From Salmonella phage vB_SenS-3, in the sequence record OR896822.1: DNA of 64,000 bases; one strand, written 5' to 3'. Positions 171-21,990 of this stretch are shown here, piece after piece. Under the pieces are notes generated by a model, which saw only the letters and a list, made by a program, of their open reading frames with translations, made no database searches and was not told the DNA's origin. A program made the position numbers and the translations under genes. The stretch's first letter is position 1. Each line of letters begins with the position of its first letter.

Positions 171-333
171 ATTCTCCCTCCTTAATAAGGAACTCTTTCC
201 ATTCTGCTGTATCCTCATAGATAACGCAGAAATCATCACTCTTCCATGAGAAGTCATCAGTAGCAAATTCGAAACGGTAGCACCAACTACCGTCTGGCCA
301 TACTAAAAGATCACACATGCTTTTCTGGGACAT
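151..333 (-). CDS. hypothetical small acidic protein
   Basis: C-terminal part of track ORF 151..474; internal ATG at 333 has GGAGGG RBS; upstream part overlaps Sir2 gene. Confidence 0.3.
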   Translation of the reverse strand: MSQKSMCDLLVWPDGSWCYRFEFATDDFSWKSDDFCVIYEDTAEWKEFLIKEGEYGEEDF

Positions 334-1162
334 AAATATTTCCCTCCATAAAAGCTTCAACTTGATCAATAAAGTGTTTATTACCAAAAACTTCGGCAGC
401 TCCAGCACGCCATACAGTAACACCACGTTTCTCATATTCAAGCTGTTCATCATAGCGAACTTGAGGGTTAACAACCATCATCTTAGTTCCACGACATACA
501 GCAGGGAATAGTTCCCAGTTGAAGTCAATCACTTGGTTGCTACAACCTACTACAATAACCATATCATTGCTAGTAAGTGTATCAAACAGGTTAATCTGAC
601 CCATATACCACGGAGCCGTCTCACCAAAGAATGTTACGTTTGGTTTTACCCATTCGTAATCTTCAGGAACAATTGCAGTGTATCCAACATCTTCGATGAT
701 TTGATTGCGACCCCGACGATAGATCACCTCTTTCAAGTACCCGTGAGCGTGAATGATTTCATCACGAGGGATACCAGCACGTTCCAGAAGGTCATCAACG
801 TTAGTAGTGAAGTTCTTCACGCTATCCGCACCATAACGCTGGAACCATTCTGCAATTCGCAGATGGGCAATGTTAGGCTCAACAGTCTGTAATTCCTGAC
901 GACGCATGTTGTAGAACTCATGAGTCTTGAGATACAGATCGTTACCCTCTTCATCAATGCCAGGGAAACGAGCACTGAAGTAGTTAGGATCATCTTCACC
1001 ACAGAAGCGACGGAAGCCAGCTTCAAAGTTAGGCAAGCTACATACTTCCTCTAGATCGTACTCATCCCACAAAGATTTTCCACTAGCAGTATCAGTACGG
1101 AAAGCACGAACACCACTATCAACACTTAAACCAGCACCACTAACAATGATTAGTCTACGCAT
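311..1162 (-). CDS. Sir2-family (sirtuin-like) NAD-dependent protein
   Basis: 283 aa; GAGLSVDSG Rossmann motif, TTNVDDL and HAHG motifs typical of Sir2 fold; zinc-ribbon cysteines not obvious. Confidence 0.7.
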   Translation of the reverse strand: MRRLIIVSGAGLSVDSGVRAFRTDTASGKSLWDEYDLEEVCSLPNFEAGFRRFCGEDDPNYFSARFPGIDEEGNDLYLKTHEFYNMRRQELQTVEPNIAHLRIAEWFQRYGADSVKNFTTNVDDLLERAGIPRDEIIHAHGYLKEVIYRRGRNQIIEDVGYTAIVPEDYEWVKPNVTFFGETAPWYMGQINLFDTLTSNDMVIVVGCSNQVIDFNWELFPAVCRGTKMMVVNPQVRYDEQLEYEKRGVTVWRAGAAEVFGNKHFIDQVEAFMEGNIYVPEKHV

Positions 1163-1356
1163 TATACGATTCCTTGCTTGAATCCTTCGATGATATTTTG
1201 GAGCAGAATTGCTTCTTCTGGGCGAACCTTCTCTTGCTTAATAAGCATATCCAAACCAGCAATACAGGTAGCTACTCCAGCATTATACCCAGCATTCCAC
1301 TGCTCCATAAGCATATTTTCTAAATTACTTTTTAGATTCTGATTCAAGAAGTCCAT
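1162..1356 (-). CDS. hypothetical protein
   Basis: Internal ATG of track ORF 1162..1440 with GGAGGA RBS; overlaps next ORF. Confidence 0.35.
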   Translation of the reverse strand: MDFLNQNLKSNLENMLMEQWNAGYNAGVATCIAGLDMLIKQEKVRPEEAILLQNIIEGFKQGIV

Positions 1357-1528
1357 AAAGTTTTTCCTCCAATTCCATAATACGATTTTCGTAAGAAGCA
1401 CGCAGCTTCTCGATGGACAAAGCACGAACTGTAACTTCATCTGAATTGATCGCTAGCTGAGCTAGATCTTCTGTTTCCATACGTCCGTTGTAAATTAAGC
1501 GATATTTAAGATGTTTTACGTTTTTCAT
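1325..1528 (-). CDS. hypothetical protein
   Basis: 67-aa ORF, AAGGAA RBS upstream of ATG at 1528. Confidence 0.4.
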   Translation of the reverse strand: MKNVKHLKYRLIYNGRMETEDLAQLAINSDEVTVRALSIEKLRASYENRIMELEEKLYGLLESESKK

Positions 1529-1537
1529 TCTTGTTCC

Positions 1538-1819
1538 TTAGTTCTGTACTGTAAATTCATTCTTATCACAGTGAGCATAATAATACCCATACATACGATA
1601 AATTTTCACAGCCTTAGTAGACCCCTTCGATTCTTCATAATCAATCCAGAGCCACTTGTCTTTACCTACATAATGTACCCGAAACTTCTTAACTTTCTTA
1701 TCATTCCATGTTGCAACAACACGACGATAATCAAATCCGCCCAACCAATCTAGAGCCTTACGTTCTTCACTAGGCTCTCCAAGATGGGAAACATCTACTT
1801 TCGGAAGCAATTCGCTCAT
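1538..1819 (-). CDS. hypothetical protein
   Basis: 93-aa ORF directly downstream of nrdD on minus strand. Confidence 0.45.
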   Translation of the reverse strand: MSELLPKVDVSHLGEPSEERKALDWLGGFDYRRVVATWNDKKVKKFRVHYVGKDKWLWIDYEESKGSTKAVKIYRMYGYYYAHCDKNEFTVQN

Positions 1820-1917
1820 AGCTTTCTCCTCTCAAATTTATAAATCAATTATACATAAGTTTTAGCTCGAAAGCAAATAAAATAAAAGCCAGGTCGACTA
1901 GCAACCTGGCTGATTCA

Positions 1918-3792
1918 TTATTTAGCGCGAATGTCTTGATGTTTCACTCGACCCATAACCTCATGTTGTTTACCTGGGTTAAACGGACGAGCACCTGGAT
2001 TTCCAAGATATCCACAAACTCGACGAGTTACCTCAAGAGTCTCAGGATCATGATTGCCACAAATTGGGCATTTGAAACCATCCTCAGAAGCTATAGTTTC
2101 ACCCAAGAACCCACATTCCCCACAAGAGTCTACTGGAGTATTAATACCGAAGTAATGAACTTTACTTGCAGCATAGTTAATAACCCATTCCAGTGCATCA
2201 GGGAATCGTTTCATATCAGGCAATTCCACATAGGAAATGCACCCACCAGAAGCAATTGGGGTAAAGTTAGACTCATAATCGAACTTCACGTTCGGAGCAA
2301 CCTTACGCTCCACATCAAGGTGATGAGAGTTAGTGTAATATCCTTTAACCAGAATATCTTCATGCTCTGGGAAATACTCACGATCTAGACGACAGAAGCG
2401 ATCACATAGAGATTCAGATGGTGTAGCATACAGACTATACCCTAATTGAGTCTCTTCCTTCTTCTGATCAGCACGATCACGCATGTATTGTAGCACACGT
2501 TGAACGAACTTGATACAGGATTCAGACATTGTATCTACATCTTTACCAAACATGAACTGTAACATTTCGTGGCAGCCAATATATCCTAGAGATACAGAAG
2601 CACGCTTGTAGAAATGATCAAATACATATTCATCTGGCCCCAGACGTAATCCAAAGGCTCCTGACATATAGAGGATGGGCGCAGCTTTAGCTTGAATGTA
2701 CTTTAAGCGATCAACCCTCCACTCCAATGCTTTTAACGCGGTATCCACACGCAGCTCAAGCAGATCGAAGAATAGATCAATATTACCTTCCGCTTCGATA
2801 GCAATTCGAGGTAGGTTTACAGAAACAACGCCTAAGTTGTTACGACCAGAAGTTTCACCATCTTCCGCAGCAGCCAGGAATGAACGACAGCCCATAGAGA
2901 CTTTGTAGTCTCCCGTAACTTCTACAACCTTATCATAACTGATGTAGTCAGGATACATACGTTCAGCAGTACATTTCATAGCTAACTTCTTGATATCATA
3001 GTTAACATCACCAGGTTTCATGTTTACGCCATCACGCAAAACAAATACCAGTTTAGGGAAGATAGCTGTACGTTTATTGATACCCAAACCATCCATACGC
3101 ACTTCTAGGATTGCTTTCTGTACAAGACGTGCTTCCCAAGAAGTTCCTAGACCAAACCCAAAGGTAATAAACGGACTTTGACCATTAGAGTTGAACATCG
3201 TATTGATTTCATACTCCAGGCCCTGACAGGCATCGTAAACTTCTTTCTCAGTCATTTCCGTAGCCATTACAGATGCTTTAGCTTCATCCTTAGTCCAACG
3301 CTTTGCAAACGCATGATTCTTATCATAAGACTTACGAACATAAGGAGCCAATACTTCATCTAATCGGTCTACAGAAGTACCCCCATATTGATGTGAACTA
3401 ACCTGAGTGATAATCTGAGCTGTGATAGCAGCCGCAGTAGTAATAGAGTTTGGTGTACTGATTTCAGCATTACCAACCTTCATACCATTCTTCAACATAT
3501 CTTCCAAAGCAACCAGGCAACAGTTAGTCATACCTAACGCAGCGTAATCAGCATCATGGAAGTGAATATCACCAATCATGTGAGCATTTCGAATCTGGAT
3601 TGGCATTTCTTCCAGAATCAGATGTTTACTCAATTCCCCTGCAAGCATGTCCCTTTGTGTAGGGAAACGTTCGCTTGGTTTGTTCGCATTATTAAAGAGT
3701 AGCTCTTCATCTGCTGATCCTTCGATAATTTCTTTGCAGTTTCGAATTAAGGACTGCACTCCTTTATACTTTAGTTCTTCATTGCGATTCAT
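1918..3792 (-). CDS. nrdD: anaerobic ribonucleoside-triphosphate reductase (class III)
   Basis: 624 aa; C-terminal glycyl-radical motif RVCGYLG and CPICG zinc site. Confidence 0.9.
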   Translation of the reverse strand: MNRNEELKYKGVQSLIRNCKEIIEGSADEELLFNNANKPSERFPTQRDMLAGELSKHLILEEMPIQIRNAHMIGDIHFHDADYAALGMTNCCLVALEDMLKNGMKVGNAEISTPNSITTAAAITAQIITQVSSHQYGGTSVDRLDEVLAPYVRKSYDKNHAFAKRWTKDEAKASVMATEMTEKEVYDACQGLEYEINTMFNSNGQSPFITFGFGLGTSWEARLVQKAILEVRMDGLGINKRTAIFPKLVFVLRDGVNMKPGDVNYDIKKLAMKCTAERMYPDYISYDKVVEVTGDYKVSMGCRSFLAAAEDGETSGRNNLGVVSVNLPRIAIEAEGNIDLFFDLLELRVDTALKALEWRVDRLKYIQAKAAPILYMSGAFGLRLGPDEYVFDHFYKRASVSLGYIGCHEMLQFMFGKDVDTMSESCIKFVQRVLQYMRDRADQKKEETQLGYSLYATPSESLCDRFCRLDREYFPEHEDILVKGYYTNSHHLDVERKVAPNVKFDYESNFTPIASGGCISYVELPDMKRFPDALEWVINYAASKVHYFGINTPVDSCGECGFLGETIASEDGFKCPICGNHDPETLEVTRRVCGYLGNPGARPFNPGKQHEVMGRVKHQDIRAK

Positions 3793-3901
3793 TACACCCT
3801 CCTTCTCTAATTAAGACTACTATTATAACTCATTCGAAGGCGGATGTCAACAATATTTTACCATAAAGTTCTGTAACATGATCTGAGTCAAAAAATTTTA
3901 T

Positions 3902-3930
3902 TTGCCAACCTCTATTAAAAATAGTATAAT
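3902..3930 (+). promoter_or_regulatory. sigma70-type promoter (TTGCCA N17 TATAAT)
   Basis: In divergent nrdD/phoH intergenic region. Confidence 0.5.
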
Positions 3931-4042
3931 CACACGCCCGTGTACGCGATATAAAATGATTATCTAGTACCATACATCTCCCAATAAAAGCAAGTAAATT
4001 TTTTATTTAAAAGCAATATCATGGGTTTATTTAAAATTATAC

Positions 4043-4071
4043 TTGCTTTTTGCTGTAAACCTTGTTATAAT
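4043..4071 (+). promoter_or_regulatory. sigma70-type promoter (TTGCTT N17 TATAAT)
   Basis: Second tandem promoter upstream of phoH. Confidence 0.5.
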
Positions 4072-4147
4072 ATATTTGTAAGTTGATAAACAAGATCTCT
4101 TTGTTGATCCTCTGTTAGAAGCGAAGTACACTATAGGAGTGTTATTT

Positions 4148-4900
4148 ATGGGAAAAGCACGTCAAAAAAGAGAGAACCGCAATGGTTCAAGAAAGCGTGG
4201 CAACAAGTATGATAGTAACGTAATTCAAGCAGATTTCTCTGGTGATTACGCCAATCCAGTTGCTAAATCCCTAGTTGGTAAAAACCGTGAGCAAAAATCA
4301 TATATCAATATGATCAAGAACAACACAGTGACTGTTGGTATTGGTGAACCAGGTACTGGTAAAACCTTTATTCCGTCCGTTCTTGCAGCTCAGGAACTCG
4401 TAGACATTCACTCAGATATTGAGCAAGTGATCCTCGTGCGTCCGAACGAACCTCTAGGTAAATCTCTTGGTATGCTCCCAGGTGATCTGGCAGAAAAGCT
4501 AGAGCCTTGGTTGGAACCAATAGCCGATGGCATGAAATGGGCAATCGGTGATCACGCCTACAAAGGATATGTCGAACGTCAGAAAATTAAATTCCTGGCT
4601 ATCGAACATGCCCGTGGCCGAACTTTCAACAACTCCTATGTAATTGTCGATGAAGCTCAGAATATCTCCGTTGAAGCAATGATCTGTCTCCTGACTCGTG
4701 TAGGACAAGATTGTCGTTTAATTATCTGTGGGGATATAGCGCAGAAAGACATCAAGGGTGATTCAGGTCTAGCACTTCTTATGGAAGTCTATGAGAAGTA
4801 TGAAAACTCTCCTTTCTCTATGATCGAACTGATCGACAACGTTCGCTCACCAGAGTCTAAAGCATTCTACGATATCTTTAAGGATATGGGGAAGGTGTAA
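4148..4900 (+). CDS. phoH: PhoH-like ATPase
   Basis: Walker A GEPGTGKT and IVDEAQN Walker B; AGGAG RBS 8 nt upstream of ATG 4148. Confidence 0.85.
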   Translation: MGKARQKRENRNGSRKRGNKYDSNVIQADFSGDYANPVAKSLVGKNREQKSYINMIKNNTVTVGIGEPGTGKTFIPSVLAAQELVDIHSDIEQVILVRPNEPLGKSLGMLPGDLAEKLEPWLEPIADGMKWAIGDHAYKGYVERQKIKFLAIEHARGRTFNNSYVIVDEAQNISVEAMICLLTRVGQDCRLIICGDIAQKDIKGDSGLALLMEVYEKYENSPFSMIELIDNVRSPESKAFYDIFKDMGKV

Positions 4901-4901
4901 T

Positions 4902-5144
4902 ATGGGAAACGTCGTACATCTGCACCGCAAAACTAAGATTCACCGTACTTCACTGAGTGCTGCTAATATGATTACACGTAAGGAAGGGGAAGAAAGTCCT
5001 AAGACTACCCTAGCGTGGAAAATTGTAGCCTCTAATCCAAATCGGCCTTTTAATTATAACGAATTGAGTACTTCTATAGACATTCTTATGGCTAAGGAAA
5101 TACGACAGAAACTAACTGATATGACCGATAAACTTAAATGGTAA
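4902..5144 (+). CDS. hypothetical protein
   Basis: 80-aa ORF abutting phoH stop. Confidence 0.4.
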   Translation: MGNVVHLHRKTKIHRTSLSAANMITRKEGEESPKTTLAWKIVASNPNRPFNYNELSTSIDILMAKEIRQKLTDMTDKLKW

Positions 5145-5267
5145 GACAGACGAGCCTGGGTATGAAAATATCCGGGCTCTTTTTATCTGTAAAATTGTAC
5201 TTGCAAAATGACCCAAAACAAAGTAGAATATTTCCTAAATCCTGATAACTACAAAAAGGAAAGCCAA

Positions 5268-7598: not shown

Positions 7599-7705
7599 TA
7601 AAAACAAGGAGATCTTCGGGTCTCCTTTTTTCTTTGAAATTTTACTTGCTAATCTCTACCAGATTTGCTATAATATTCCTGAAATAGTGAGAAAGAGGAA
7701 AATCA

Positions 7706-10235: not shown

Positions 10236-10589
10236 ATGTTAATTATACTATTATTTGTCATATTCTTTCTAAAACATTTTATGGCCGATTATCCACTCCA
10301 AACACCATATATGCTAAGAAAGACGCATAAAATAGGGTGGAAACTTCCATTATTAACCCATTCGCTAGTACATGCTGGATTAACATTTGCAATTCTAATC
10401 CTATTCACATCACCAGGAATGTCTATAGCTTTAGCTATTATGGAATTAATTCTACACTTTATTATAGATTATTGGAAAGCACAACGCTGTAAATACGCTA
10501 TAAGCGATGCTAAGTTTTGGATAGCTTTAGGATTTGATCAGTTACTGCATTATCTGACATACGCCCTAATAATCTTGATTATAATCTAA
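10236..10589 (+). CDS. hypothetical membrane protein
   Basis: 117 aa, several hydrophobic segments. Confidence 0.45.
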   Translation: MLIILLFVIFFLKHFMADYPLQTPYMLRKTHKIGWKLPLLTHSLVHAGLTFAILILFTSPGMSIALAIMELILHFIIDYWKAQRCKYAISDAKFWIALGFDQLLHYLTYALIILIII

Positions 10590-10687: not shown

Positions 10688-11266
10688 ATGACAGCCATAG
10701 TAGCATTTAAATATAAAGATAAAGTATACTTAGCTGGTGATCGTATGGGTTCTAATGGCTATACGAAACTGCTGGTTAAAAATCCGAAAGTATTCAAAAT
10801 CTCTGATGATTTGTACTTCGGATACACTAGTTCCTTCTACATGGGACAATTACTAGAGCATAGCTTTACTGTACCACCACGTTTAGCAGATATTTCCGAT
10901 GATAAATATTTATATACGGAAATAGTACCTAAATTACGTGATATGTTTAACCAGAAAGATTTTGGCGAAAAGAAAAATGAAAAATATGCTGAACCTAATC
11001 TGGGACAATTTATTATGCTCTACAAAGGAAGAATCTTTATTTTCCAATCTAATGCTTCTATTCTAGAAGTTGAATATGCCGGTGTAGGCTGTGGAGGAGA
11101 AGATGTACTTTCCAGTATTCGTACAGGTTTAGCTATTGCGGATTGTCGAGCCACAGATTTAGATGTAGATGATATATTTGAAATCATTGATCTGGCTTTT
11201 ACGCATTGTGCAGATTATATGTGTGGTGTATCTTCCCAACATGATGTTTTAGTAATTGGAGAATAA
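10688..11266 (+). CDS. Ntn-hydrolase / HslV-like peptidase (putative)
   Basis: N-terminus MTAIVAFKYKDKVYLAGDRMGSNG resembles HslV/proteasome beta subunit with Thr at position 2. Confidence 0.4.
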   Translation: MTAIVAFKYKDKVYLAGDRMGSNGYTKLLVKNPKVFKISDDLYFGYTSSFYMGQLLEHSFTVPPRLADISDDKYLYTEIVPKLRDMFNQKDFGEKKNEKYAEPNLGQFIMLYKGRIFIFQSNASILEVEYAGVGCGGEDVLSSIRTGLAIADCRATDLDVDDIFEIIDLAFTHCADYMCGVSSQHDVLVIGE

Positions 11267-11268
11267 AT

Positions 11269-11538
11269 ATGTCTATTCTTTTATCTGCTTTAGAAGCAAA
11301 ACAAAATACTATTGCTAGCATTAAAAAGGAAGTAATTGACCTAGAATCACTTATTGCCGTAGAGATTGACAAAGCTATTAAAGATAAAGAATTTAACTGT
11401 CACATCCAGGGATTAACTGAATACTCAGAAAACGCTAGAAATAGCGTCATGCAAAAACTTAGCAAACTAGGTTATGTTGTAGAAGCTAAGTATGAACAGC
11501 GTGAAGGTTTTTGGCTTGAAATTGATTGGAGCAAATAA
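11269..11538 (+). CDS. hypothetical protein
   Basis: 89-aa ORF. Confidence 0.4.
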   Translation: MSILLSALEAKQNTIASIKKEVIDLESLIAVEIDKAIKDKEFNCHIQGLTEYSENARNSVMQKLSKLGYVVEAKYEQREGFWLEIDWSK

Positions 11539-13529: not shown

Positions 13530-14231
13530 ATGAAATTCAAGCCCTTTGGTATGCTGGACATTGAATCTCTAGGTACTCCAGGAAATTGCGGTACTACTCA
13601 TATTGCAATGCCTTCTTTCGCTTTTGTAGCGATGCACGGAATTGATAAAGATCCTGATCTGGTATTCGTTACTCTAGACGTTCAAGATCAGCTTAATGCG
13701 GGTGCTAAGGTAACTGCCTCTACTATTGCATTCTGGATGGATCAAGCTAAAAACAGTCCATCTGCGCTCCATATTATGGAGGCTCTAAATGGTCGTAATC
13801 CTAAACTGATTGCCTTCCGTGATGGTAAGCATCACTGCACTAATGACGTAGGCTCTAATTATGCTGCCTTCTCTATGGCTCAGAACATTATGGAATTGTC
13901 TCTAGGAGATAATGCTCTGTATTATGGCAATGGCCCAGAGTTTGATATGACAATCTACTCTGCAAATACGTTCCATGCCGGAACCCATGAAGAAATAGTT
14001 CCGTGGAAATTCTGGAACTTAGGTAACGTTCGATCTTTCCGTAATCAGTGGATGCAAGCTGGTTATAGCTATAAAGATCTAGAAGCCGAAGGTGCTAGCT
14101 GGGCAAAAGCTAAAATGGAAAAGATGGACACCATTCGTTATGGAATCTATCCTGTGAAGCATGATCCAGCATTCGATGCTTTAGTTGAAAGTTATTGTGT
14201 AGCCGTCATGATCGAAAAAATCAAAATTTGA
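13530..14231 (+). CDS. DEDDh-type 3'-5' exonuclease-like protein (putative)
   Basis: LDIES (Exo I-like D-x-E) near N-terminus and HDPAFDAL (Exo III-like H-x4-D) near C-terminus. Confidence 0.45.
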   Translation: MKFKPFGMLDIESLGTPGNCGTTHIAMPSFAFVAMHGIDKDPDLVFVTLDVQDQLNAGAKVTASTIAFWMDQAKNSPSALHIMEALNGRNPKLIAFRDGKHHCTNDVGSNYAAFSMAQNIMELSLGDNALYYGNGPEFDMTIYSANTFHAGTHEEIVPWKFWNLGNVRSFRNQWMQAGYSYKDLEAEGASWAKAKMEKMDTIRYGIYPVKHDPAFDALVESYCVAVMIEKIKI

Positions 14232-14232
14232 T

Positions 14233-14261: not shown

Positions 14262-14301
14262 ATATTCATAAATTTGAGAGAACAACAAAAGGAAAATAAT
14301 T

Positions 14302-14484: not shown

Positions 14485-14537
14485 TAGACCATTTTTAAAA
14501 CAAATTCAAATCTCAAACTTCATATAAGGAAGAAATA

Positions 14538-15176: not shown

Positions 15177-15566
15177 TGATTTAAAAGACTAGTAAATCGG
15201 TAGACGAAAGCCCAAGCATCTTACCTCGCAGCAGCGGTTGAAATACGAGGTTAAATAAGACCGCTGACCATACTATAAAGTATAATCTATTGGAGATTAT
15301 CTTAATTTATTTTTCGGCAGATGTTGCATCTGTCAAAATAAAACAAGACGTCGTTGGTAGTACCAACACAACTTCAAAGATCAACGCTCAAGTATGAAAG
15401 CTGAAAAGTTAAAAGCACTCAAACTTCTAACCTTCTAAAGCTAAAAGATGCAAAGTATTCGTTGATGATTCAAACCCTAGATCAAAGGTACATGGCTCAT
15501 AAGATATGGCCTGTGGCGCCTCTAGGCTATTTATCGGTTTACTAGTTTCACAATTTAAAAATGTAT

Positions 15567-15595
15567 TTGCTAATTAGTTTAGTTTTCTGTATAAT
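15567..15595 (+). promoter_or_regulatory. early-type promoter (TTGCTA N17 TATAAT)
   Basis: Same architecture. Confidence 0.55.
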
Positions 15596-15625
15596 ATATT
15601 TTTAAATTGATGAGACGAGGCTATT

Positions 15626-15943
15626 ATGATTTTTCATATTCTTATTGATGATGTGCGTAACCTTCATGGAATGGACATTATAATTCGAACCCCCGAAGCC
15701 GCTGTTGAGTTTCTGAATAAAACCGATACCACAGGTCATTTCGTTTATATGGATAACGATCTGGCTGTAGATGATATGGAAGGTTATCAAATTCTTCGTT
15801 TACTCCTAGAATTTGGTCAGAGACCCAAGAAAGTGGTACTAGTAACCTCGAACCCAGTAGCTAAAGAGACCATGCGTAATGATCTCTTAGACGAAGGGTA
15901 TCAAGAAAGCCCTAATCGTATTGAGTACGATTGGCCGGAGTAA
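15626..15943 (+). CDS. hypothetical protein
   Basis: 105 aa; promoter upstream. Confidence 0.45.
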   Translation: MIFHILIDDVRNLHGMDIIIRTPEAAVEFLNKTDTTGHFVYMDNDLAVDDMEGYQILRLLLEFGQRPKKVVLVTSNPVAKETMRNDLLDEGYQESPNRIEYDWPE

Positions 15944-15948
15944 ATAAA

Positions 15949-16398
15949 ATGAAGGCAGCTTTGCTTTTAATAGCTGCCCTAACCTATAGCTTCAATAGTC
16001 ATGCTACCTACGACGCTAAACAGATTGATTGCATTGCAAAAAATGTCTATTTTGAGAGCCGAGGTGAGGGCACGAAGGGAATGGTTGCAGTTGCACAGGT
16101 CACCAAAAACCGTGTTAACTCTGGTACATTCCCGGATTCTTACTGTAAAGTAGTATATCAGTCTAACCAGTTCTCTTGGGTATCTAAGAGACCAAAAGTT
16201 GATAAAACCGATGCGGCTTGGCAAACTGCTAAGAATGTAGCTAGAGTGATATACTACGTTGATTTACCCCATGATCCAACATATGGAGCGTTATACTTCC
16301 ATAGTGGTAAAGAAAAGCCGTACTGGACGAAAACGTTCAAGAAAACAACTAAAATTCAAGGCCACACGTTCTATAAGCCTGTGACTAAGAAAATTTAA
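15949..16398 (+). CDS. secreted cell-wall hydrolase (SleB-like)
   Basis: Signal peptide MKAALLLIAALTYSFNSHA; NVYFESRGE...VAQV..NRV core resembles SleB-type hydrolase domain. Confidence 0.55.
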   Translation: MKAALLLIAALTYSFNSHATYDAKQIDCIAKNVYFESRGEGTKGMVAVAQVTKNRVNSGTFPDSYCKVVYQSNQFSWVSKRPKVDKTDAAWQTAKNVARVIYYVDLPHDPTYGALYFHSGKEKPYWTKTFKKTTKIQGHTFYKPVTKKI

Positions 16399-16406
16399 AA
16401 ATTCAA

Positions 16407-16435
16407 TTGCTTTAAGCCTTAAAATTCTGTATAAT
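16407..16435 (+). promoter_or_regulatory. early-type promoter (TTGCTT N17 TATAAT)
   Basis: Same architecture. Confidence 0.55.
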
Positions 16436-16467
16436 AACTGTATAAATTGATGAGAGGAAAGCGAACA

Positions 16468-16638
16468 ATGAAAACCTTAGTAATTATTGGTGTTAATACT
16501 CATGGTATTCGTACTACGAAAACAGTTAAAACTACTAACATTGCTGAAATTACTACAAATCCTAAGAAGTTTGATTTCGCCAAAGTCTCAGCAGTTATGA
16601 CAGAACAATCTTTTAACCAAGCACTGGGAATTAAATAA
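16468..16638 (+). CDS. hypothetical small protein
   Basis: ATG 16468 after GAGAGGAAAG RBS. Confidence 0.35.
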   Translation: MKTLVIIGVNTHGIRTTKTVKTTNIAEITTNPKKFDFAKVSAVMTEQSFNQALGIK

Positions 16639-17081
16639 TGGAAGAGAATATTCTAGATGTTTTGCGTAGGGCTTTGCAGGAATCCAAGTTTGATGGTTCT
16701 GATAAAGAAGTAGCTAAAAGCTACCAGACCATAATCGGAGATCTTCAGCGTGTTGATAAAGACTTCATTACTTCTGAACAGTTTATATCTTATCTAAAAG
16801 CTCAACTGAAAAGCATTAATCAGACGAAAGCTAAACTTCACAGTCAAGATCTTGATAATTATAGCTTGCAGTCTGCTCAGTATGAATATATACTGAACAA
16901 ATGGTTACAGCAGTATTTGCCTCCTCAGCTATCTGATTCTGAGATTCGCAAATACTTCGCAGAATTAGTTAAGCTGAATCCTGGGATTACAAAGGGTATG
17001 CTGATGAAAGCGATTAAGGAAGAGTTTCCTGGTCGTTACGACGGTGGCATTGCTGCTCAGGTTGCTGGCGAATTTAATTAA
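16638..17081 (+). CDS. GatB/YqeY-domain-like protein (putative)
   Basis: C-terminus NPGITKGMLMKAIKEEFPGRYDGGIAAQV resembles YqeY/GatB C-terminal domain. Confidence 0.45.
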   Translation: MEENILDVLRRALQESKFDGSDKEVAKSYQTIIGDLQRVDKDFITSEQFISYLKAQLKSINQTKAKLHSQDLDNYSLQSAQYEYILNKWLQQYLPPQLSDSEIRKYFAELVKLNPGITKGMLMKAIKEEFPGRYDGGIAAQVAGEFN

Positions 17082-17089
17082 AAATTAAT

Positions 17090-17118
17090 TTGCTAAACGC
17101 TTCAAAATTCTGTATAAT
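17090..17118 (+). promoter_or_regulatory. early-type promoter (TTGCTA N17 TATAAT)
   Basis: Upstream of HNH gene. Confidence 0.5.
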
Positions 17119-17124
17119 ATATTC

Positions 17125-17607
17125 ATGAAAAGGAAAGAATACCCTACTAAAGAAATACTTGAAAAATATTTTGTAGCTGATCCTGATAATGGGATACTAT
17201 ATAGGAAAACAAAGAAAGGTTTGAAAGAGTGTTGTGCCAATAATAAGAAATCACATCCAGATGTGGGATTTCAGGGCGACACCTATCAACTGCATGTCTT
17301 ATTATTTATTATGTACTATGGATATATGCCTGAAGAAGTAGATCATAAGGATACTAATCCTAGAAATAATAGGAAAAATAATCTAAGGGACGCCTCTAGA
17401 TCGCAAAATAATGCGAATAGAAACCAACAATGCAATAATACTTCTTGGTACAAAGGAGTAAGTTGGGAAGGCTCTTCCTTGAGATACCAAGTAAGACATG
17501 AAGGAAAAAATTACAGTAAAAGAGGGTTTAAAACTGCGGAAGAGGCTTTCGAGGCCTCTAAGATATTAAGAGAATCCTTACATAAAGAATTTACTAACTT
17601 TGGTTAG
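17125..17607 (+). CDS. HNH homing endonuclease with AP2-like domain
   Basis: VDHKDTNPRNNRKNNL HNH motif; YKGVSW...RYQVRHEGK AP2-like DNA-binding segment. Confidence 0.7.
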   Translation: MKRKEYPTKEILEKYFVADPDNGILYRKTKKGLKECCANNKKSHPDVGFQGDTYQLHVLLFIMYYGYMPEEVDHKDTNPRNNRKNNLRDASRSQNNANRNQQCNNTSWYKGVSWEGSSLRYQVRHEGKNYSKRGFKTAEEAFEASKILRESLHKEFTNFG

Positions 17608-18237
17608 TAATAGTGGGGTGCCGAAACCACTTATGTAACAACACTGCCGTCCTAGTATAATAGGTATTATTAGGGCTTCACCGCCTGAAGATGTGGGTTC
17701 GAGTCCCACGGTCGGAAAGAGTTGGATAACTGGTGCTTCTAATGGCGAAGCAATCGCAGGCAGTTGCGCACTGCCAAAACCACGCGGTAGTTGGTTCCAG
17801 GCTAACCAACCACTCTTGAAAAGTATATACTACGGTTTTGCTTGTTCAGGAAGCTTCGCATCGAAAATCGGAGGTGCGATTTTATCAGACCGCGTGGAGG
17901 ACGTCTCTCCGTTAAGTGACGAAAAGTGGGACGATTCAGGTAGAGCTGGATATGGAACACCTATACATATGCGGAGTGCGCACAAAGCATATTGCGGTGG
18001 TACTAAACGAAATTAGGAGTCATGACCTGCACAAGTTTAGTATGTCATAACCGATGTACATTCAGTACAAAAACCACTGAAGCTAAGATAGATAGTCACC
18101 TTGACTTAAACTGGAAGATATTGTCTGACGGAAGGGCTGCAGAGCTTAATCTGAGGGGGCTGACCCTACCTACCGTCGGGTATCTTTAAGAGTTCTTACG
18201 AGAACTCTTAAAGATACCTAAACATTAAGGAATACTG
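17608..18237 (+). ncRNA. candidate structured RNA (GC-rich, tRNA-like T-arm at 5' end, several hairpins)
   Basis: No RBS or promoter-proximal start; GTGGGTTCGAGTCCCAC T-arm at 17693-17709 without matching acceptor stem; local GC rise; many stems. Confidence 0.3.
18179..18218 (+). other. perfect 18-bp stem / 4-nt loop hairpin
   Basis: GGTATCTTTAAGAGTTCT / AGAACTCTTAAAGATACC inverted repeat just upstream of the ORF at 18238. Confidence 0.7.
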
Positions 18238-18747
18238 ATGAATCTAGGAACTACTTGTATATTTGATCACAGAGAAATGTGTTGCCCACATATTCTGTAT
18301 GTAGTTCACTTTGCAGAACGTCTTACTCTGGATGAAGCTCGTGAGAAAATGGGTGGAATTACTGGATATGATTTCCGTGAAGGTGAATACTTTAGCATTG
18401 CTCTTGATTACATTGACAATACCCGTCTCTATCATCTAGTGCAGCTAGGGGAAGAAACTGATGAAGTGAAAATGGCGAAAGATACTCTACGTCGTTATCG
18501 TCCTCAGATTCTAGAACGTACACTTCGTGGAGAACGTAGTGACCCATTGTTCTTGAAGTGCTATGACGCAGATGTTAATGAGTATCTAGGACAGCAACGG
18601 TTTTACACTGAAATCAAAGAGTTTGTTCGTGAAAAATACGACGCTCTACTAATTGATTCCAGAGCACGACGTGCAGCTAAAAATGCTGAGAAATCTGCTA
18701 AAGCAGCACTAGAAAGCCAAACCAAACTGAACGAAATCGTTAAGTGA
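18238..18747 (+). CDS. hypothetical protein
   Basis: 169-aa ORF, AAGG RBS. Confidence 0.5.
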   Translation: MNLGTTCIFDHREMCCPHILYVVHFAERLTLDEAREKMGGITGYDFREGEYFSIALDYIDNTRLYHLVQLGEETDEVKMAKDTLRRYRPQILERTLRGERSDPLFLKCYDADVNEYLGQQRFYTEIKEFVREKYDALLIDSRARRAAKNAEKSAKAALESQTKLNEIVK

Positions 18748-18755
18748 TCTAATTT

Positions 18756-18830
18756 CGGGGTGTAGTCTAAGGGATAGGCAGGAGTCTTCTAAATTCCTTT
18801 ATGCAGGTTCGAATCCTGTCACCTCGGCCA
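18756..18830 (+). tRNA. tRNA-Arg (anticodon TCT)
   Basis: Hand-folded cloverleaf: acceptor CGGGGTG/CACCTCG, T-loop TTCGAAT, anticodon loop CTTCTAA, CCA encoded. Confidence 0.65.
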
Positions 18831-18856
18831 ATCTTATTACCTGTTAGGAAAATAAA

Positions 18857-19057
18857 ATGAAAACACGATATATAGTAAAAGTAGTAGGTGAACATTCGCA
18901 AGTAAATACCACGGATGTTACAGCACTAGCATTTGAGGTAGTCTCCGGTATAGTCATATTTCATAATGGGGATATCAAAGCTCCTGAATTTGCTGTGGAT
19001 GCTGGCCTGTTTATTTCTGCAACTAAAGTAACTGTAGTAGCTAACTCTTCTAAATAA
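18857..19057 (+). CDS. hypothetical protein
   Basis: 66-aa ORF. Confidence 0.35.
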   Translation: MKTRYIVKVVGEHSQVNTTDVTALAFEVVSGIVIFHNGDIKAPEFAVDAGLFISATKVTVVANSSK

Positions 19058-19068
19058 TAAGGAAATAT

Positions 19069-20013
19069 ATGTTTACTAAAAACACTAAAGAACTGACTTC
19101 TGAGCAAAAAGTAATTCGTACTATTAAACGTTGGGGTGTTGGTGCTGCTATTAGTCTTGGTGCTCTTATTCTGGCTCTCAATTCCTATACAGTTGTTCAG
19201 GATGGTACTGTTAAGACCCAAACCTTCCTGGGTAAAGTTAGCCCTAATCCTGTATTGCCAGGCTTCCATATTGTTAACCCATTTGCTTCTTTTGATACTT
19301 TTAGTACGAAAGATATTTCCATGAAACTGGATAAACTTCAGGTTCCTAGCCAGGATAAGTTTAAGTCCACTGTTGACATTACCGTTATGTTGCAGTTTGA
19401 TGGTGCTAAAGCTCCTATGAACCGTGTTAACGCAGGTACTCAGGATCAAGCTCTGAACAAGTACGTTGAAGAGAAGATGCTGTCTACGATTCGTGAGTTT
19501 GGTAAGTCTGTACCAAAAGCACAAGATCTGTTCGACGCTAAGATTCAGGCTCAACTGCAAACCGCTATTCAGCAAGAAGTAGAAGAGTATGCGCGTCCTT
19601 ATGGTTACACCGTTAAGCAAGTATTCCTTCAGGATATTACTCTGCCACCGGTAATCATGGAACAGGTACAGAACACCAAAGTTCGTGAAGAACAAGTTAA
19701 CGCTGCAAAAGCTGAACTGGCTCGTGTTGAACAAGAAGCACAGCAGAAAGTTAAGCAAGCTGAGGCGGATCGTTCCGCTCGTGAAAACATGGCAGTAGCT
19801 AACGAACGTGACGCAGATGCTAAACTGTACGCAGCTAAGAAAGAAGCTGAAGCTAACGCCGCTCTGCAACGTACCATTACTCCTGAAATGATTCGTTGGA
19901 AGCAGCTGGAAGTTGAAATGCTTCGTGCTGAAAAATACCAAGGTGGTGTACCACAGACTGTTGTCGGTACTGGCTACGATGGTCAAATGATCATGGATAT
20001 GCGTAACAAGTAA
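19069..20013 (+). CDS. SPFH/band-7 (prohibitin/HflK-like) membrane protein
   Basis: N-terminal TM then VVQDGTVKTQTFLGK band-7 core and long coiled-coil Ala/Glu/Gln-rich C-terminus. Confidence 0.65.
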   Translation: MFTKNTKELTSEQKVIRTIKRWGVGAAISLGALILALNSYTVVQDGTVKTQTFLGKVSPNPVLPGFHIVNPFASFDTFSTKDISMKLDKLQVPSQDKFKSTVDITVMLQFDGAKAPMNRVNAGTQDQALNKYVEEKMLSTIREFGKSVPKAQDLFDAKIQAQLQTAIQQEVEEYARPYGYTVKQVFLQDITLPPVIMEQVQNTKVREEQVNAAKAELARVEQEAQQKVKQAEADRSARENMAVANERDADAKLYAAKKEAEANAALQRTITPEMIRWKQLEVEMLRAEKYQGGVPQTVVGTGYDGQMIMDMRNK

Positions 20014-20046
20014 TAGTTACACGTAATCTTCGAACCAAGCCCGCGT

Positions 20047-20082
20047 TTCCTTCGAGAGCGCGGGCTTTTCTGTATTTAAGGC
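20047..20082 (+). terminator. rho-independent terminator
   Basis: GCCCGCG...CGCGGGC stem followed by TTTTCTGTATTT. Confidence 0.6.
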
Positions 20083-20217
20083 AAAAGAAAAAGCCCATAA
20101 GTTATTCAACTAAGGTCTTTAGTATTTAATTCTTTAGAATCATATACTATTATTGCAGCAACAACGTGCTAACCTTAAGTGCCCTGCGATTTTCCTCTAA
20201 AAAGTTAAAAAATTCGA

Positions 20218-20246
20218 TTGCTTGAATGCTAAATTCTCTGTATAAT
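20218..20246 (+). promoter_or_regulatory. early-type promoter (TTGCTT N17 TATAAT)
   Basis: Upstream of nadR-pnuC. Confidence 0.55.
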
Positions 20247-20276
20247 ATATTTATAAATTTGAGAGAGGAATCAAAT

Positions 20277-21332
20277 ATGATTAAGACTGGTCTAGTAATT
20301 GGTAAGTTCGCACCATTAACGCGTGGTCATATTAACCTAATAAACACAGCAGCAACTATGTGTGAACGAGTTATTGTTGTAGTTAGTCATGATAATCGTT
20401 GGCTGGATAAGCAGAACACACGTGATAAGGAAGTATTACAGTTAAAGAATCGACTTCGTTGGTTAGAACAAACTTACGCGGATATTGAGCACATTTCGGT
20501 AGAGTACATTATTGAAGATGATATTCCTGAATATCCGAATGGTTGGCCGGAATATGCTAGAATCCTTAATGAAAATTACGGACATTTGCCTGAGATCACC
20601 GTTTTCTCTAGCGAACTAGACTATGATGCAGAATATAAGAAATATCTGCCGAAGTTTGGTCATTATATTGTAGATTCTGATCGGACTCGTGTTCCAATCT
20701 CAGCTACAATGATTCGTAATGATCTTATGAAGTATTGGGAGTTTCTTCCTAGCGTAGTTCGTAAAGATTACGTGCGTAAGGTTGTAATCATTGGGACTGA
20801 AAGCTCGGGAAAGACTACTTTAACAAAATACCTTGCGAAGCTATACAACACTTCGTGGGTAGAAGAATATGGTCGAACGTATTGTGAAGTTGATCTAGTT
20901 GGTAACGAAAATCTGCTTACCAGCGAAGATTATAGTAAAATTGCGTTCAGACACAAAGAGCTAGAGTTTGAAGCAGAACGTACTGCAAATAAGATCATGT
21001 TTGTGGATACAAATGCTTTTATTACTGAGTTCTACCACAGACTTTATGAACATAGTAAGAATCCTGTGGTTACAGCAATTGCAAAAGAAGAACATTATGA
21101 TTTAGTAATTGTTCTAGCGCCTACTGTCAAGTGGGTAGATGATGGTTTACGTATTAACTCCGATCGTTCAATTACTTCTGAACTATTCGAGCAGATGAAG
21201 AAAGAATTTCCAAATCAGTTCCCTGAAGGGCGTACTGTTTACATCGACTCTCCGGACTACAAAGTTCGTATGGACGAAGCAGTAAACGCAGTAGACTGGC
21301 TGATTCATCACTTTAACGTTGGAGAGTTTTAA
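20277..21332 (+). CDS. nadR: NadR-like bifunctional NMN adenylyltransferase / ribosylnicotinamide kinase
   Basis: GKFAPLTRGH nucleotidyltransferase motif plus IIGTESSGKTT P-loop; ATG 20277. Confidence 0.75.
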   Translation: MIKTGLVIGKFAPLTRGHINLINTAATMCERVIVVVSHDNRWLDKQNTRDKEVLQLKNRLRWLEQTYADIEHISVEYIIEDDIPEYPNGWPEYARILNENYGHLPEITVFSSELDYDAEYKKYLPKFGHYIVDSDRTRVPISATMIRNDLMKYWEFLPSVVRKDYVRKVVIIGTESSGKTTLTKYLAKLYNTSWVEEYGRTYCEVDLVGNENLLTSEDYSKIAFRHKELEFEAERTANKIMFVDTNAFITEFYHRLYEHSKNPVVTAIAKEEHYDLVIVLAPTVKWVDDGLRINSDRSITSELFEQMKKEFPNQFPEGRTVYIDSPDYKVRMDEAVNAVDWLIHHFNVGEF

Positions 21333-21333
21333 T

Positions 21334-21990
21334 ATGACTAACTATCTCGTAAATGACTTTAAAAACTGGAAACCTCTGGAATATCTGTGGCTGTTCATAG
21401 CGGTTGTCTTCATTAGTTTAGCAAACTATAATGGTACAGCTCTAGATTGGGCTACTGCAATAACCAATGTGGTTTGTGTTATTCTGGTTGCAAAAGGACG
21501 TATTTCCAACTATATTTGGGGCTTAGTGGGTGTTCTTACATATGGTATTACAGCTTTAAACGCAGATCTTTATGGTAACGCTGCACTAAACCTGCTATAC
21601 TACGTTCCTATGCAGTTTTATGGAATGTACTTATGGCATAAAAATAAGCCAAGTAATCTGCCAGATGTTCCAACTAAGGTTCTGACTAAAGCCCAAGCTC
21701 TGCTGACTCTAGGGATTCTAGCAGTAGCCACGTTAGGGTATGGTAGTTTCTTAGCTACTACGGCTGATCCATTTCCAATGTTGGATGCATTTACTGCTGT
21801 AGGTAGTGTGATCGCTATGTGGCTTATGGTTAAGCAATATGCCGAGCAGTGGCTGATCTGGATTGCTATTAACATTGGTACTGTGTACATTTGGCTTGTA
21901 ACTGCTCAATCTACAGGTGCATCTTATGCAATCCTAGCAATGTGGCTAGTATTCTTAGGTAACTCTATTATAGGAGCCTATAAAGGATAA
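21334..21990 (+). CDS. pnuC: PnuC-family nicotinamide riboside transporter
   Basis: Multi-TM protein with PnuC-like NxxxWxxG and LYYVPMQFYGMYLWHKN segments; immediately after nadR. Confidence 0.75.
   Translation: MTNYLVNDFKNWKPLEYLWLFIAVVFISLANYNGTALDWATAITNVVCVILVAKGRISNYIWGLVGVLTYGITALNADLYGNAALNLLYYVPMQFYGMYLWHKNKPSNLPDVPTKVLTKAQALLTLGILAVATLGYGSFLATTADPFPMLDAFTAVGSVIAMWLMVKQYAEQWLIWIAINIGTVYIWLVTAQSTGASYAILAMWLVFLGNSIIGAYKG

Follow-up and report, generated by a model that had tools for sequence, protein, structure and literature searches.

Two separate NAD+-linked units are probably encoded in the 64,000-nt stretch of Salmonella phage vB_SenS-3 DNA analysed here (OR896822.1, hereafter the window): a NadR-PnuC operon, which represents the NARP3 system, and a Sir2-like protein, which appears to be a phage-specific, zinc-less offshoot of the class III sirtuins. 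The two would have a metabolite in common, and neither an operon nor an inheritance pattern; we put the probability of this whole reading at roughly 75%. The NadR-PnuC part of the finding is already known as the published NARP3 system; the leads left are the substrate of the phage sirtuin and the way in which, in other phage lineages, it repeatedly lies close to genes for NAD+ reconstitution. The source of the window is a T5-like phage (Epseptimavirus), with ~100% identity to Salmonella phages RA40 and polluks. Profile searches scored well over the thresholds for NadR, PnuC and Sir2, bearing out all three assignments of an earlier sequence-only reading.

Table 1. Features of the window discussed in the text.
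Feature	Position	Strand	Description
HAD_SAK_2 phosphatase gene (first 7 nt)	1..7	-	remainder beyond the left edge of the window
Small ORF between Sir2 and the HAD_SAK_2 gene	151..333	-	60 aa; polluks_72; PHROG 5116, function unknown
Sir2, putative phage-clade sirtuin	311..1162	-	283 aa; Pfam SIR2, PHROG 2162, AlphaFold2 model
cREC_REC protein	15626..15943	+	105 aa; Pfam PF20274, E 8.5e-15
Intrinsic terminator after the SPFH gene, upstream of the operon	20037..20067	+	12-bp stem, then T-run
Predicted sigma-70-type early promoter of NadR-PnuC	20218..20246	+	read from sequence
NadR-PnuC operon	20277-21990	+	own promoter, hairpin at either side
NadR-like bifunctional enzyme	20277..21332	+	351 aa; NMN adenylyltransferase and ribosylnicotinamide kinase domains
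PnuC-type nicotinamide riboside transporter	21334..21990	+	218 aa; Pfam NMN_transporter, E 3.3e-43
GC-rich hairpin 3' of PnuC	22019..22041	+	9 bp; folding energy -18 kcal/mol, z = -4.1

The NadR-PnuC operon

The sequence-only reading had PnuC directly following NadR under one promoter at 20218, and both points proved sound: the PnuC start codon lies 1 nt past the NadR stop codon (21330-21332), and the promoter is legible in the sequence (-35 box TTGCTT at 20218-20223, a 17-nt spacer, -10 box TATAAT at 20241-20246), with the upstream terminator and the hairpin after PnuC bounding the operon. A generic promoter scanner missed this promoter because its -35 box matches the consensus at only three of six bases. 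The same -35 box occurs again before the next gene, together with an identical stretch of 45 nt that begins shortly 5' of the -10 box and extends as far as the ATG. The upstream terminator (folding energy -20.7 kcal/mol, z = -3.6) is predicted to keep upstream transcription out of the operon; the hairpin 3' of PnuC, which has a weak T-tail and was not called by the terminator scanner, is probably the operon terminator. The operon is flanked by an SPFH gene upstream and tRNA-Ser downstream.

The start of NadR was set at ATG 20277 in place of the mechanical ORF start at 20226. This ATG is preceded by the ribosome-binding site GAGAGAGGA and agrees with annotated and crystallised homologues, and the longer ORF would contain the -10 box. 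For PnuC, ATG 21334 replaces TTG 21319. NadR matched Pfam AAA_28 (E 1.2e-31) and CTP_transf_like (E 2.3e-7) and scored 253.6 bits against NCBIfam NadR PRK08099 (cut-off 201); its alignment covers positions 65-407 of the NadR profile (411 positions), thus the N-terminal HTH domain is missing. PnuC scored 120 bits against TIGR01528 (cut-off 42) and matched PDB 4QTN with E 6.8e-33.

The proteins share their domains (NMNAT and RNK) and their transporter family with cellular NadR and PnuC, as reflected in the E values for H. influenzae NadR 1LW7 (2e-55), E. coli NadR 8X7F (1e-50) and Neisseria mucosa PnuC 4QTN (7e-33). Enteric NadR, however, has an N-terminal HTH repressor domain, whereas phage NadR is without it (PMC13464706), which leaves only the enzyme. 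In the window protein the HxGH motif reads TRGH, with Thr in place of the first His, a change shared with the active Bas30_86.

The closest known system is NARP3, formed by Bas30_86 and Bas30_87 of Escherichia phage TrudiRoth (Yan et al., Sci Adv 2026, PMC13464706; PDB 9X6H/9X6F), for which regeneration of NAD+ from nicotinamide riboside (NR) taken up by the cell has been demonstrated as a counter to NAD-depleting defences. The experiments relied on plasmid expression, not on native phage, a gap that the authors name as a limitation (PMC13464706). With this qualification, the proposal that phage NAD+ salvage works against NAD-depleting defences has experimental backing from a near-identical operon. 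The genus Epseptimavirus, the two-gene order and the flanking genes of NARP3 all match the window. Window NadR is identical to Bas30_86 (PDB 9X6F/9X6H) at 349/351 positions (99.4%); the two substitutions, K51Q and V109I, fall outside the 17 residues named functional (PMC13464706), all of which are kept and nine of which are covered by function-impairing mutations. Window PnuC is 99% identical to Bas30_87 over 218 aa and keeps all three residues needed for NR binding (N45, Q94 and N180; PMC13464706), each of them covered by function-impairing mutations. It carries I57V and I213M, and the last 7 aa of the assayed Bas30_87 are absent because of a TAT-to-TAA change at 21988-21990; no differences beyond these were found in either protein. 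We infer that the window NadR-PnuC is the NARP3 counter-defence operon and would act as the ~99% identical published proteins do. The shortening of PnuC by seven residues is an observation that counts against NARP3 function of the window copy.

In the proposed action, the two genes would be expressed early as a single, translationally coupled transcript, PnuC would import NR, and NadR would convert it to NMN with its kinase domain and then to NAD+ with its adenylyltransferase domain. The NAD+ pool could in this way be refilled after its destruction by defences such as Sir2-HerA or DSR1, and the process would rely on external NR. NARP1 (Adps and Namat) and NARP2 (NadV and NatV) have the same purpose, NAD+ restoration during infection, but differ in enzymes and substrates: NARP1 uses ADPR and nicotinamide and NARP2 nicotinamide and PRPP (Osterman et al. 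2024), whereas the substrate of NARP3 is NR brought in from outside. A tblastn search of the window for PRPS-like genes, the NARP1 type, found none.

The Sir2-like protein

The Sir2 protein matched Pfam SIR2 with E 2e-21 (77 bits, cut-off 24) and PHROG 2162 'Sir2' with E 2.5e-107, and its AlphaFold2 model has a mean pLDDT of 87.5. The kept motifs, GAGLS 9-13, F21-R22, TNVD 120-123, FFGE 178-181 and the class III pair Y84/R87 together with the catalytic residue, are invariant across 45 homologues. Of the two features by which the earlier reading would have recognised an intact sirtuin, the catalytic His is present (His140) and the zinc ribbon is absent; no zinc-ribbon cysteines were found in any of the 44 sirtuin family members checked (window Sir2 and 43 others).

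With the class III sirtuins (CobB 1S5P/6RXJ, Sir2Af1 and human SIRT5) the protein shares the Rossmann NAD+ pocket, the catalytic His, the YxxR pair and the FGE loop. These three are the best structural matches of the model (TM 0.83 for CobB, normalised by the CobB chain), and CobB is also the best sequence match (profile E 2e-24), with ~26% identity to class III sirtuins. The phage protein differs from them as follows: the zinc ribbon is replaced by a cysteine-free beta-hairpin, the Gln of TQNxD is Thr, the Val-x-Pro of the G-T-S-x-x-V-x-P cleft motif is replaced by V-I-(N/D)-F-N-W, invariant in the phage family, and residues 47-76 form a variable 30-aa insertion.

Genomic context of Sir2

Sir2 sits in a leftward early replication and nucleotide-metabolism operon, and its 3' end is overlapped by 23 nt by the small ORF, which is 57% identical to its T5 counterpart. 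For the HAD_SAK_2 gene we used polluks, which is 100% identical over window positions 1-4000; there the gene occupies record positions 60895-61410 and encodes a PF18143 match (E 3.5e-17) with an intact DIDGV motif. HAD_SAK_2 lies 0.8-1.3 kb from Sir2 in 28 of the 31 T5-like loci. In rV5/Mydo-like phages the conserved neighbours of Sir2 are an RNA ligase, cREC and a kinase. The cREC gene, encoding the same predicted cyclic-phosphate-processing domain as in the window (rV5 protein E 4.5e-15), stands immediately upstream of Sir2 in rV5-like phages; in rV5, RNA_lig_T4_1, cREC and Sir2 all point the same way, and genes for a P-loop kinase and a metallophosphoesterase lie beside them. This gene set recurs in 11 further loci, whose Sir2 proteins are 45-56% identical to that of the window. 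Searches of the window and of T5_ev212 by tblastn turned up nothing related to the RNA ligases of rV5/Mydo or to the polynucleotide kinase of rV5. Phapecoctavirus-like phages have a different context, a metallophosphoesterase and an Acb2/Tad1-like gene. The Sir2 block is 52% identical to T5, between flanking genes at 90-98%, and is an allelic-replacement hotspot.

An RNA-repair role was predicted for a phage sirtuin clade by Iyer, Burroughs, Anantharaman and Aravind (2022; PMC9503650, section 3.7.3), who name the V5/Mydo group and the T5-like phage SP15. Window Sir2 falls within this clade, with orthologues in Mydo and the rV5-type Vequintavirus (rV5_ev156), and we re-verified the HAD_SAK neighbours in T5-like phages and the RNA ligase, cREC and kinase neighbours in rV5-like phages. 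In the window phage, however, cREC and Sir2 are not adjacent but 15 kb apart, and an RNA ligase was not found by tblastn; the role of the clade is itself a prediction.

Relation of Sir2 to the salvage operon

The grouping of the three genes into one NAD-centred gene set was not supported by the analysis. Sir2 and NadR-PnuC lie 19 kb apart on opposite strands, in separate transcription units with separate promoters, and the genes conserved beside Sir2 belong to RNA-end processing rather than to salvage. Searched by tblastn over its whole genome, T5_ev212 yielded Sir2, HAD_SAK_2, cREC, NrdD and SPFH, but neither NadR nor PnuC; two unrelated ORFs occupy the syntenic slot instead. Sir2 and NadR-PnuC are not inherited together.

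A single module, in which the sirtuin and the NAD+-dependent DNA ligase are consumers fed mainly by NadR-PnuC and counter-defence is a side benefit, has to be weighed against this pattern, and we regard it as improbable. Such a module has been proposed before for KVP40-like phages (PMC5107563) and jumbo phages (PMC11662467), and the phage does encode a split NAD+-dependent DNA ligase. Elsewhere, nine IMG/VR loci and Mydo have a NAMPT-like gene paired with a PRPS-like one, as in NARP1, at a distance of 2-8 kb from Sir2; in the jumbo phage GAP32, 6 kb of DNA hold NMNAT-Nudix, NadV, Sir2 and Nudix genes that all run in one direction; and NadV-like and/or NMNAT-Nudix-like genes lie within 9 kb of Sir2 in loci L063 and L065. 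Since the same sirtuin clade is found 2-9 kb from NARP1- or NARP2-type genes in other lineages, a looser metabolic link may exist, and this proximity suggests that the sirtuin is not completely independent of NAD+ supply. T5_ev212, however, keeps Sir2 and the NAD+-dependent ligase while lacking NadR, PnuC and any PRPS-like gene, and the nicotinamide and ADP-ribose released by a sirtuin are not recycled by NARP3, which imports NR. The usual place of Sir2 is among early genes of nucleotide metabolism (NrdD, PhoH, ThyA, ligases), a region in which salvage genes tend to gather as well, so the proximity may be non-specific.

Possible functions of Sir2

With its NAD+ pocket and catalytic His intact, Sir2 would most likely cleave NAD+ and move the ADP-ribose to a negatively charged acceptor. 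As this acceptor we tentatively favour, at somewhat less than even odds, the 2'-phosphate end of RNA, in a Tpt1/KptA-like step of tRNA/RNA repair in which the partners of Sir2 would be cREC and the HAD_SAK_2 phosphatase encoded close by. The HAD_SAK_2, RNA ligase, cREC and kinase neighbours, the cREC protein and 28 tRNAs in the window, and the earlier prediction by Iyer et al. point in this direction. On the other side, HAD_SAK and cREC are themselves predicted RNA-repair domains, the tblastn searches described above found no RNA ligase or polynucleotide kinase relatives, the Phapecoctavirus-like context differs, and an acidic family (median pI 5.05) is unusual for RNA-binding enzymes. To the best of our knowledge, no sirtuin has been shown by experiment to act on RNA.

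Homology alone favours a conventional NAD+-dependent protein lysine deacylase of the CobB/SIRT5 kind, remodelling host or phage proteins early in infection; the protein is so annotated in public records, it matches CobB, Sir2Af1 and SIRT5 best in both sequence and fold, the YxxR pair, FGE loop and catalytic His are invariant across the family, and the family is acidic, like CobB. We nevertheless consider this role rather unlikely. In canonical sirtuins, deacetylase activity depends structurally on the zinc site, and its cysteines occur in 0/44 family members; the Val-x-Pro of the cleft motif is lost, TQNxD has become TTNVD in every member, the scores are far under the NCBIfam CobB cut-offs (70.5 vs 320 and 86.7 vs 243), and the genes conserved next to Sir2 are for RNA-end enzymes and not for protein modification. 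If Sir2 is a deacylase, it is probably a desuccinylase/demalonylase (succinyl- or malonyl-lysine), the next most likely role after that on RNA 2'-phosphate.

Least probable, and in our estimate very unlikely, is an anti-defence or NAD-consuming factor that destroys or modifies NAD-derived immune signals, or acts as an NADase like the defence SIR2 domains. Bacterial defence SIR2 domains (ThsA, DSR1/2, SIR2-HerA) likewise have the SIR2 fold without a zinc ribbon, the Sir2 block is the hotspot noted above, and in a Phapecoctavirus-like genome Sir2 shares one operon with an Acb2/Tad1-hairpin family protein. Window Sir2, however, matches no PADLOC defence model and has no sensor or partner domain fused to it, and an NADase would oppose the phage's own NARP3 operon and NAD+-dependent ligase. 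All 50 of the best structural matches listed are canonical sirtuins and none is a defence NADase; ThsA, DSR1/2 and SIR2-HerA are targets of NARP3, not relatives of window Sir2.

The NadR-PnuC operon

All three protein assignments of the sequence-only reading were upheld by profile searches, well over the thresholds. NadR matched AAA_28 (E 1.2e-31), CTP_transf_like (E 2.3e-7) and NCBIfam NadR PRK08099 (253.6 bits, cut-off 201), PnuC matched NMN_transporter (E 3.3e-43) and TIGR01528 (120 bits, cut-off 42), and Sir2 matched Pfam SIR2 (E 2e-21). The 351-aa NadR aligned to positions 65-407 of the 411 of PRK08099, so that the NMNAT and RNK domains are present and the HTH domain is missing. The mechanically called starts of both operon genes were corrected. 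The NadR ORF as called is longer and has the -10 box within it; the ATG now assigned has a GAGAGAGGA ribosome-binding site on its 5' side. The PnuC start was moved to ATG 21334. The proposal that one promoter drives the two genes, which are coupled, is sound, as NadR and PnuC are adjacent, co-directional and 1 nt apart (the NadR stop codon ends one base before the PnuC ATG), with a terminator before the promoter and a hairpin after PnuC. This promoter was not reported by a generic promoter scanner; its reading by eye is supported by the duplicated promoter and leader sequence.

In the PDB sequence search, 349/351 residues of NadR were identical to those of 9X6F/9X6H (E 1e-240), the structures of Bas30_86 from Escherichia phage TrudiRoth, where the gene context is the same as in the window. 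The NadR-PnuC pair is NARP3, an already published system, and the operon had been predicted before by Iyer et al. 2022 (PMC9503650) and Osterman et al. 2024. The window NadR differs from Bas30_86 only by K51Q and V109I, and PnuC differs from its TrudiRoth counterpart, Bas30_87, by I57V, I213M and a TAT-to-TAA change that trims the last 7 residues. As to the functional residues named in the NARP3 paper (Yan et al., Sci Adv 2026, PMC13464706), 17/17 are kept in NadR (K10, F11, S37, E80, P84, G89, F110, S112, D115, V139, I141, K163, D164, R167, K168, E230 and D275), and N45, Q94 and N180 are identical in PnuC. The final residues YFVRVNK are missing from PnuC of the window and of Salmonella phage polluks, which leaves the reported functional residues unaffected; the codon read as TAA here is TAT in Bas30_87 and in phage bux.

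It was reported that NR is bound by Bas30_87 and turned by Bas30_86 first into NMN and then into NAD+, and that co-expression of the two, depending on NR, restored NAD+ and protected phages T7 and lambda against Sir2-HerA and DSR1 (Yan et al., PMC13464706). These rescue results come from plasmid-expressed proteins 99% identical to those of the window (PMC13464706), from which the window pair is predicted to convert NR to NAD+ and to rescue from Sir2-HerA and DSR1. By tblastn, NadR-like genes were found in 795 and PnuC-like genes in 834 phage records, far more than the 124 NARP3 operons counted by Yan et al. (PMC13464706). Given NR, NARP3 would explain why T5-like phages of Salmonella and E. 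coli can in many cases plate on hosts with NAD-depleting defences. This is already published, and the window contributes only one more copy, nearly identical, in which PnuC is slightly shorter.

The cassette is flanked by direct repeats of 45 identical nucleotides, located before NadR and before the next gene. Each copy starts just 5' of the -10 box, takes in the leader and the ribosome-binding site and reaches the ATG, and the -35 TTGCTT is also common to both. If the repeats recombined, the cassette would be excised cleanly and a single promoter would remain. The Tequintavirus genome T5_ev212 has, in its slot corresponding by synteny to window 20200-22000, two unrelated opposite-strand ORFs of 329 and 138 aa, neither of which gave a match in Pfam; the site between SPFH and tRNA-Ser seems to take variable cargo.

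Features of the window and of related phage loci (L002, polluks; L006, T5_ev212; L072, OP172792)
Feature	Position	Strand	Remark
Leftward early cluster		minus	nrdD, three small ORFs, Sir2, then past the window edge
Sir2	311-1162	minus	
Sir2 block	151-1356		aligned to L006 28808-29973
Rightward early cluster		plus	PhoH, NrdAB, DHFR, ThyA, RNase H, others, then SPFH, NadR-PnuC, start of tRNA array
DUF3307	10236-10589		
Proteasome subunit match	10688-11266		192 aa, Pfam E 1.2e-9
ORF	11269-11538		
Rv2179c-like 3'-5' exoribonuclease domain	13530-14231		E 1.3e-7
cREC protein	15626-15943		
ORF with homologue in phage bux	17125-17607		
tRNA labelled SeC	17645-17718		anticodon UCA, ARAGORN
Strong terminator 5' of operon promoter	20037-20067		
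Operon promoter	from 20218	plus	TTGCTT, 17 nt, TATAAT; read by eye from sequence
45-nt repeat, two copies	20235-20279; 22076-22120		
NadR-PnuC operon	20277-21990	plus	NadR ATG 20277; PnuC ATG 21334, stop TAA 21988-21990
9-bp hairpin 3' of PnuC	22019-22041		
Gene after the cassette	ATG 22118		
Slot syntenic to the cassette	L006 9611-11038		
Split NAD+-dependent DNA ligase	L002 3993-5949		subunits A and B
Acb2_Tad1_hairpin gene	L072 2940-3215		
Loci with sirtuin near NARP1-/NARP2-type genes	L005 1-1133; L073 1-2879		also L022, L024, L025, L047, L050, L057, L058, L060, L061, L063, L065

Separation of Sir2 from the operon

Megablast with window 19000-23000 and 1-4000 gave hundreds of matches to T5-like phages (Demerecviridae), with ~100% identity in Salmonella phages RA40 and polluks; among annotated phages, the nearest relatives belong to Epseptimavirus. 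Positions 311-21990, which the sequence-only reading had presented as a single NAD-centred gene set, span two transcription directions, one leftward and one rightward early cluster. The assignments and the operon from that reading stand, but the union of the three genes into one set does not: Sir2 lies 19 kb from NadR, on the opposite strand and in a separate transcription unit, and T5_ev212 has Sir2 without NadR or PnuC. The complete T5_ev212 genome encodes Sir2 (52% identity), HAD_SAK_2 (90%), cREC (91%), NrdD (98%) and SPFH (91%), and local tblastn detected in it no NadR, PnuC or any PRPS-like gene. The whole T5 genome and local tblastn were used because the IMG/VR NadR scan returned 4 loci only and left out a contig in which the gene is almost certainly present; co-occurrence by contig name was left unused. 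Since T5_ev212 keeps Sir2 without the NARP3 genes, the two are not inherited together. NARP3 thus sits in what appears to be a variable slot, and Sir2 belongs to the conserved T5-like backbone.

Sir2 and the adjoining small ORFs share no more than 34-57% identity with the corresponding T5 sequences, and the genes flanking them are conserved (NrdD 98%, s2 88%, HAD_SAK_2 90%), so this stretch looks like an allelic-replacement block. The same pattern was seen for DHFR (58%) and YqeY (51%). Some phages, such as 1Sgal2PP, carry the T5-type Sir2 together with NARP3.

Properties of the phage sirtuin

By tblastn, 983 phage records were seen to carry this sirtuin, which is a long-annotated phage family of putative function. 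Across 45 homologues (55-87% identity), the invariant elements are GAGLS 9-13, F21-R22, TNVD including N121 and D123, the catalytic H140, FFGE, GCS (G206-S208), the adenine-ribose N232 and the class III YxxR pair, Y84 and R87, which aligned to FYNARR of CobB. The canonical TQNxD reads TTNVD in every family member, and the Val-x-Pro part of the cleft motif G-T-S-x-x-V-x-P gives way to an invariant V-I-(N/D)-F-N-W. Of the two features by which the sequence-only reading proposed to check Sir2, the catalytic His (His140) is intact and the zinc ribbon is missing. The small domain lacks the four cysteines, the whole protein having only C41, C54, C207 and C223, and 0/44 family members have more than one Cys in the segment from the HG to the KPN motif. 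In the AlphaFold2 model (mean pLDDT 87.5), a beta-hairpin is predicted in place of the zinc ribbon, and the best PDB fold matches of the model are CobB, Sir2Af1 and SIRT5. The scores against the NCBIfam CobB equivalogs fell far short of the cut-offs (NF040867, 70.5 bits vs 320; NF001753, 86.7 vs 243). A zinc-less phage Sir2/CobB was noted in silico for KVP40-like phages, with T5 also listed as a carrier (PMC5107563), and our literature search returned no biochemical work on members of this phage sirtuin clade.

The reading of Sir2 as a defence-type SIR2 NADase (Thoeris ThsA, DSR, SIR2-HerA) was dropped because no PADLOC defence model matched it at E 0.01; the scan of the three proteins gave only weak P-loop matches, for NadR. 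Sir2 is a single-domain protein and has no HerA, SLOG or TIR neighbour.

Possible function of Sir2

Hints about the substrate come from the gene neighbourhood, which was counted over 59 IMG/VR loci with this sirtuin, the neighbours being confirmed by Pfam. Polluks, whose sequence is identical to that of the window, encodes a HAD_SAK_2 phosphatase in the third gene 3' of Sir2, and the DxD motif of this protein is intact; just the first 7 nt of the gene fall within the window. The phosphatase gene is located 0.8-1.3 kb from Sir2 in 28/31 T5-like loci. In 11 other loci, which are rV5-, Mydo- and 4MG-like, the stretch within ~3.7 kb upstream of Sir2 encodes an RNA ligase, a P-loop kinase and a metallophosphoesterase, and in most of these loci also a cREC protein. 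The present loci reproduce the neighbourhoods from which a KptA/Tpt1-like role in RNA repair was predicted (Iyer et al. 2022, PMC9503650), and for the Sir2 of the window the conserved RNA-end-processing neighbour of that RNA-repair-associated sirtuin clade is HAD_SAK_2. A cREC protein is also encoded in the window, at 15626-15943.

Sirtuins react by attack of an acceptor oxygen on C1'' of NAD+, after which the His activates the ribose hydroxyl. Because this parallels Tpt1, RNA-repair chemistry is plausible for Sir2 on the basis of established mechanisms. The sirtuin YxxR pair recognises acidic acyl groups, and, being carboxylate-binding in SIRT5, it could hold phosphate instead. We tentatively favour a role of Sir2 in RNA-end repair (probability about 0.4). 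Against this role stand the missing partners, since tblastn with rV5 and Mydo queries detected no relative of RNA ligase or polynucleotide kinase in the window or T5_ev212, and the different Sir2 context in Phapecoctavirus-like phages; the acidity of the family (median pI 5.05) also counts weakly against an RNA substrate. Sir2 might otherwise be a lysine deacylase, a prediction that we consider somewhat less likely, and other roles are rated lower than either. If the sirtuin were shown to act on RNA ends, sirtuin chemistry would be extended and NAD+ supply would be tied to RNA repair during infection.

In the Phapecoctavirus-like OP172792, a gene of the Acb2_Tad1_hairpin family (anti-CBASS/anti-Thoeris sponges) lies 4 kb upstream of Sir2, forming one co-directional run with a metallophosphoesterase gene and Sir2.

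NAD+ supply near the sirtuin in other phages

In other lineages, members of this sirtuin clade are found close to NAD+ reconstitution genes. Mydo and 9 IMG/VR loci have a NAMPT-like and PRPS-like pair, the NARP1 architecture, 2-8 kb from Sir2; GAP32 has an NMNAT-Nudix gene, NadV, Sir2 and a Nudix gene, all pointing the same way inside 6 kb; and in L063 and L065, NadV-like and/or NMNAT-Nudix-like genes lie at most 9 kb from Sir2. Taken over the clade, distances of 2-9 kb to NARP1-type genes or to NARP2-type genes, the latter being NadV plus NMNAT-Nudix, are seen in Mydo/4MG-like phages, GAP32-like jumbo phages and some uncultured phages. This link is a lead and not a result, because the lineages are few and Sir2 is generally found among early nucleotide-metabolism genes; as T5 has the sirtuin without such a pathway, the sirtuin does not require NAD+ reconstitution genes.

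The split NAD+-dependent DNA ligase of polluks, ~7.5-9.4 kb beyond the left edge of the window, shares the leftward operon series with Sir2 and is a second NAD+ consumer encoded by the phage.

A wider proposal is that the zinc-less sirtuin is an NAD+-dependent ADP-ribosyltransferase acting on an RNA 2'-phosphate or another phospho-acceptor and working with HAD_SAK_2 and cREC in tRNA/RNA repair, and that NAD+ reconstitution partly fuels the sirtuin and the ligase; we regard this combination as improbable. Under it, NAD+ reconstitution would be kept partly as fuel for these two enzymes, beyond defeating NAD-depleting defences, and the supply would come from NARP3 here, from NARP1-type genes in Mydo/4MG-like phages and from NARP2-type genes in GAP32-like phages.

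Other features of the region

The 192-aa protein with the Proteasome subunit match, DUF3307 and the ORF at 11269-11538 have no counterparts in T5_ev212. The protein with the Rv2179c-like domain, called 'metallopeptidase' in relatives, may be another RNA-processing gene of its region. The tRNA labelled SeC heads an array of 28 tRNAs and could be a UGA-reading suppressor-type tRNA; in phage bux, a 'tRNA-OTHER' follows just after the homologue of the ORF at 17125-17607 and is apparently the tRNA syntenic to the one labelled SeC.
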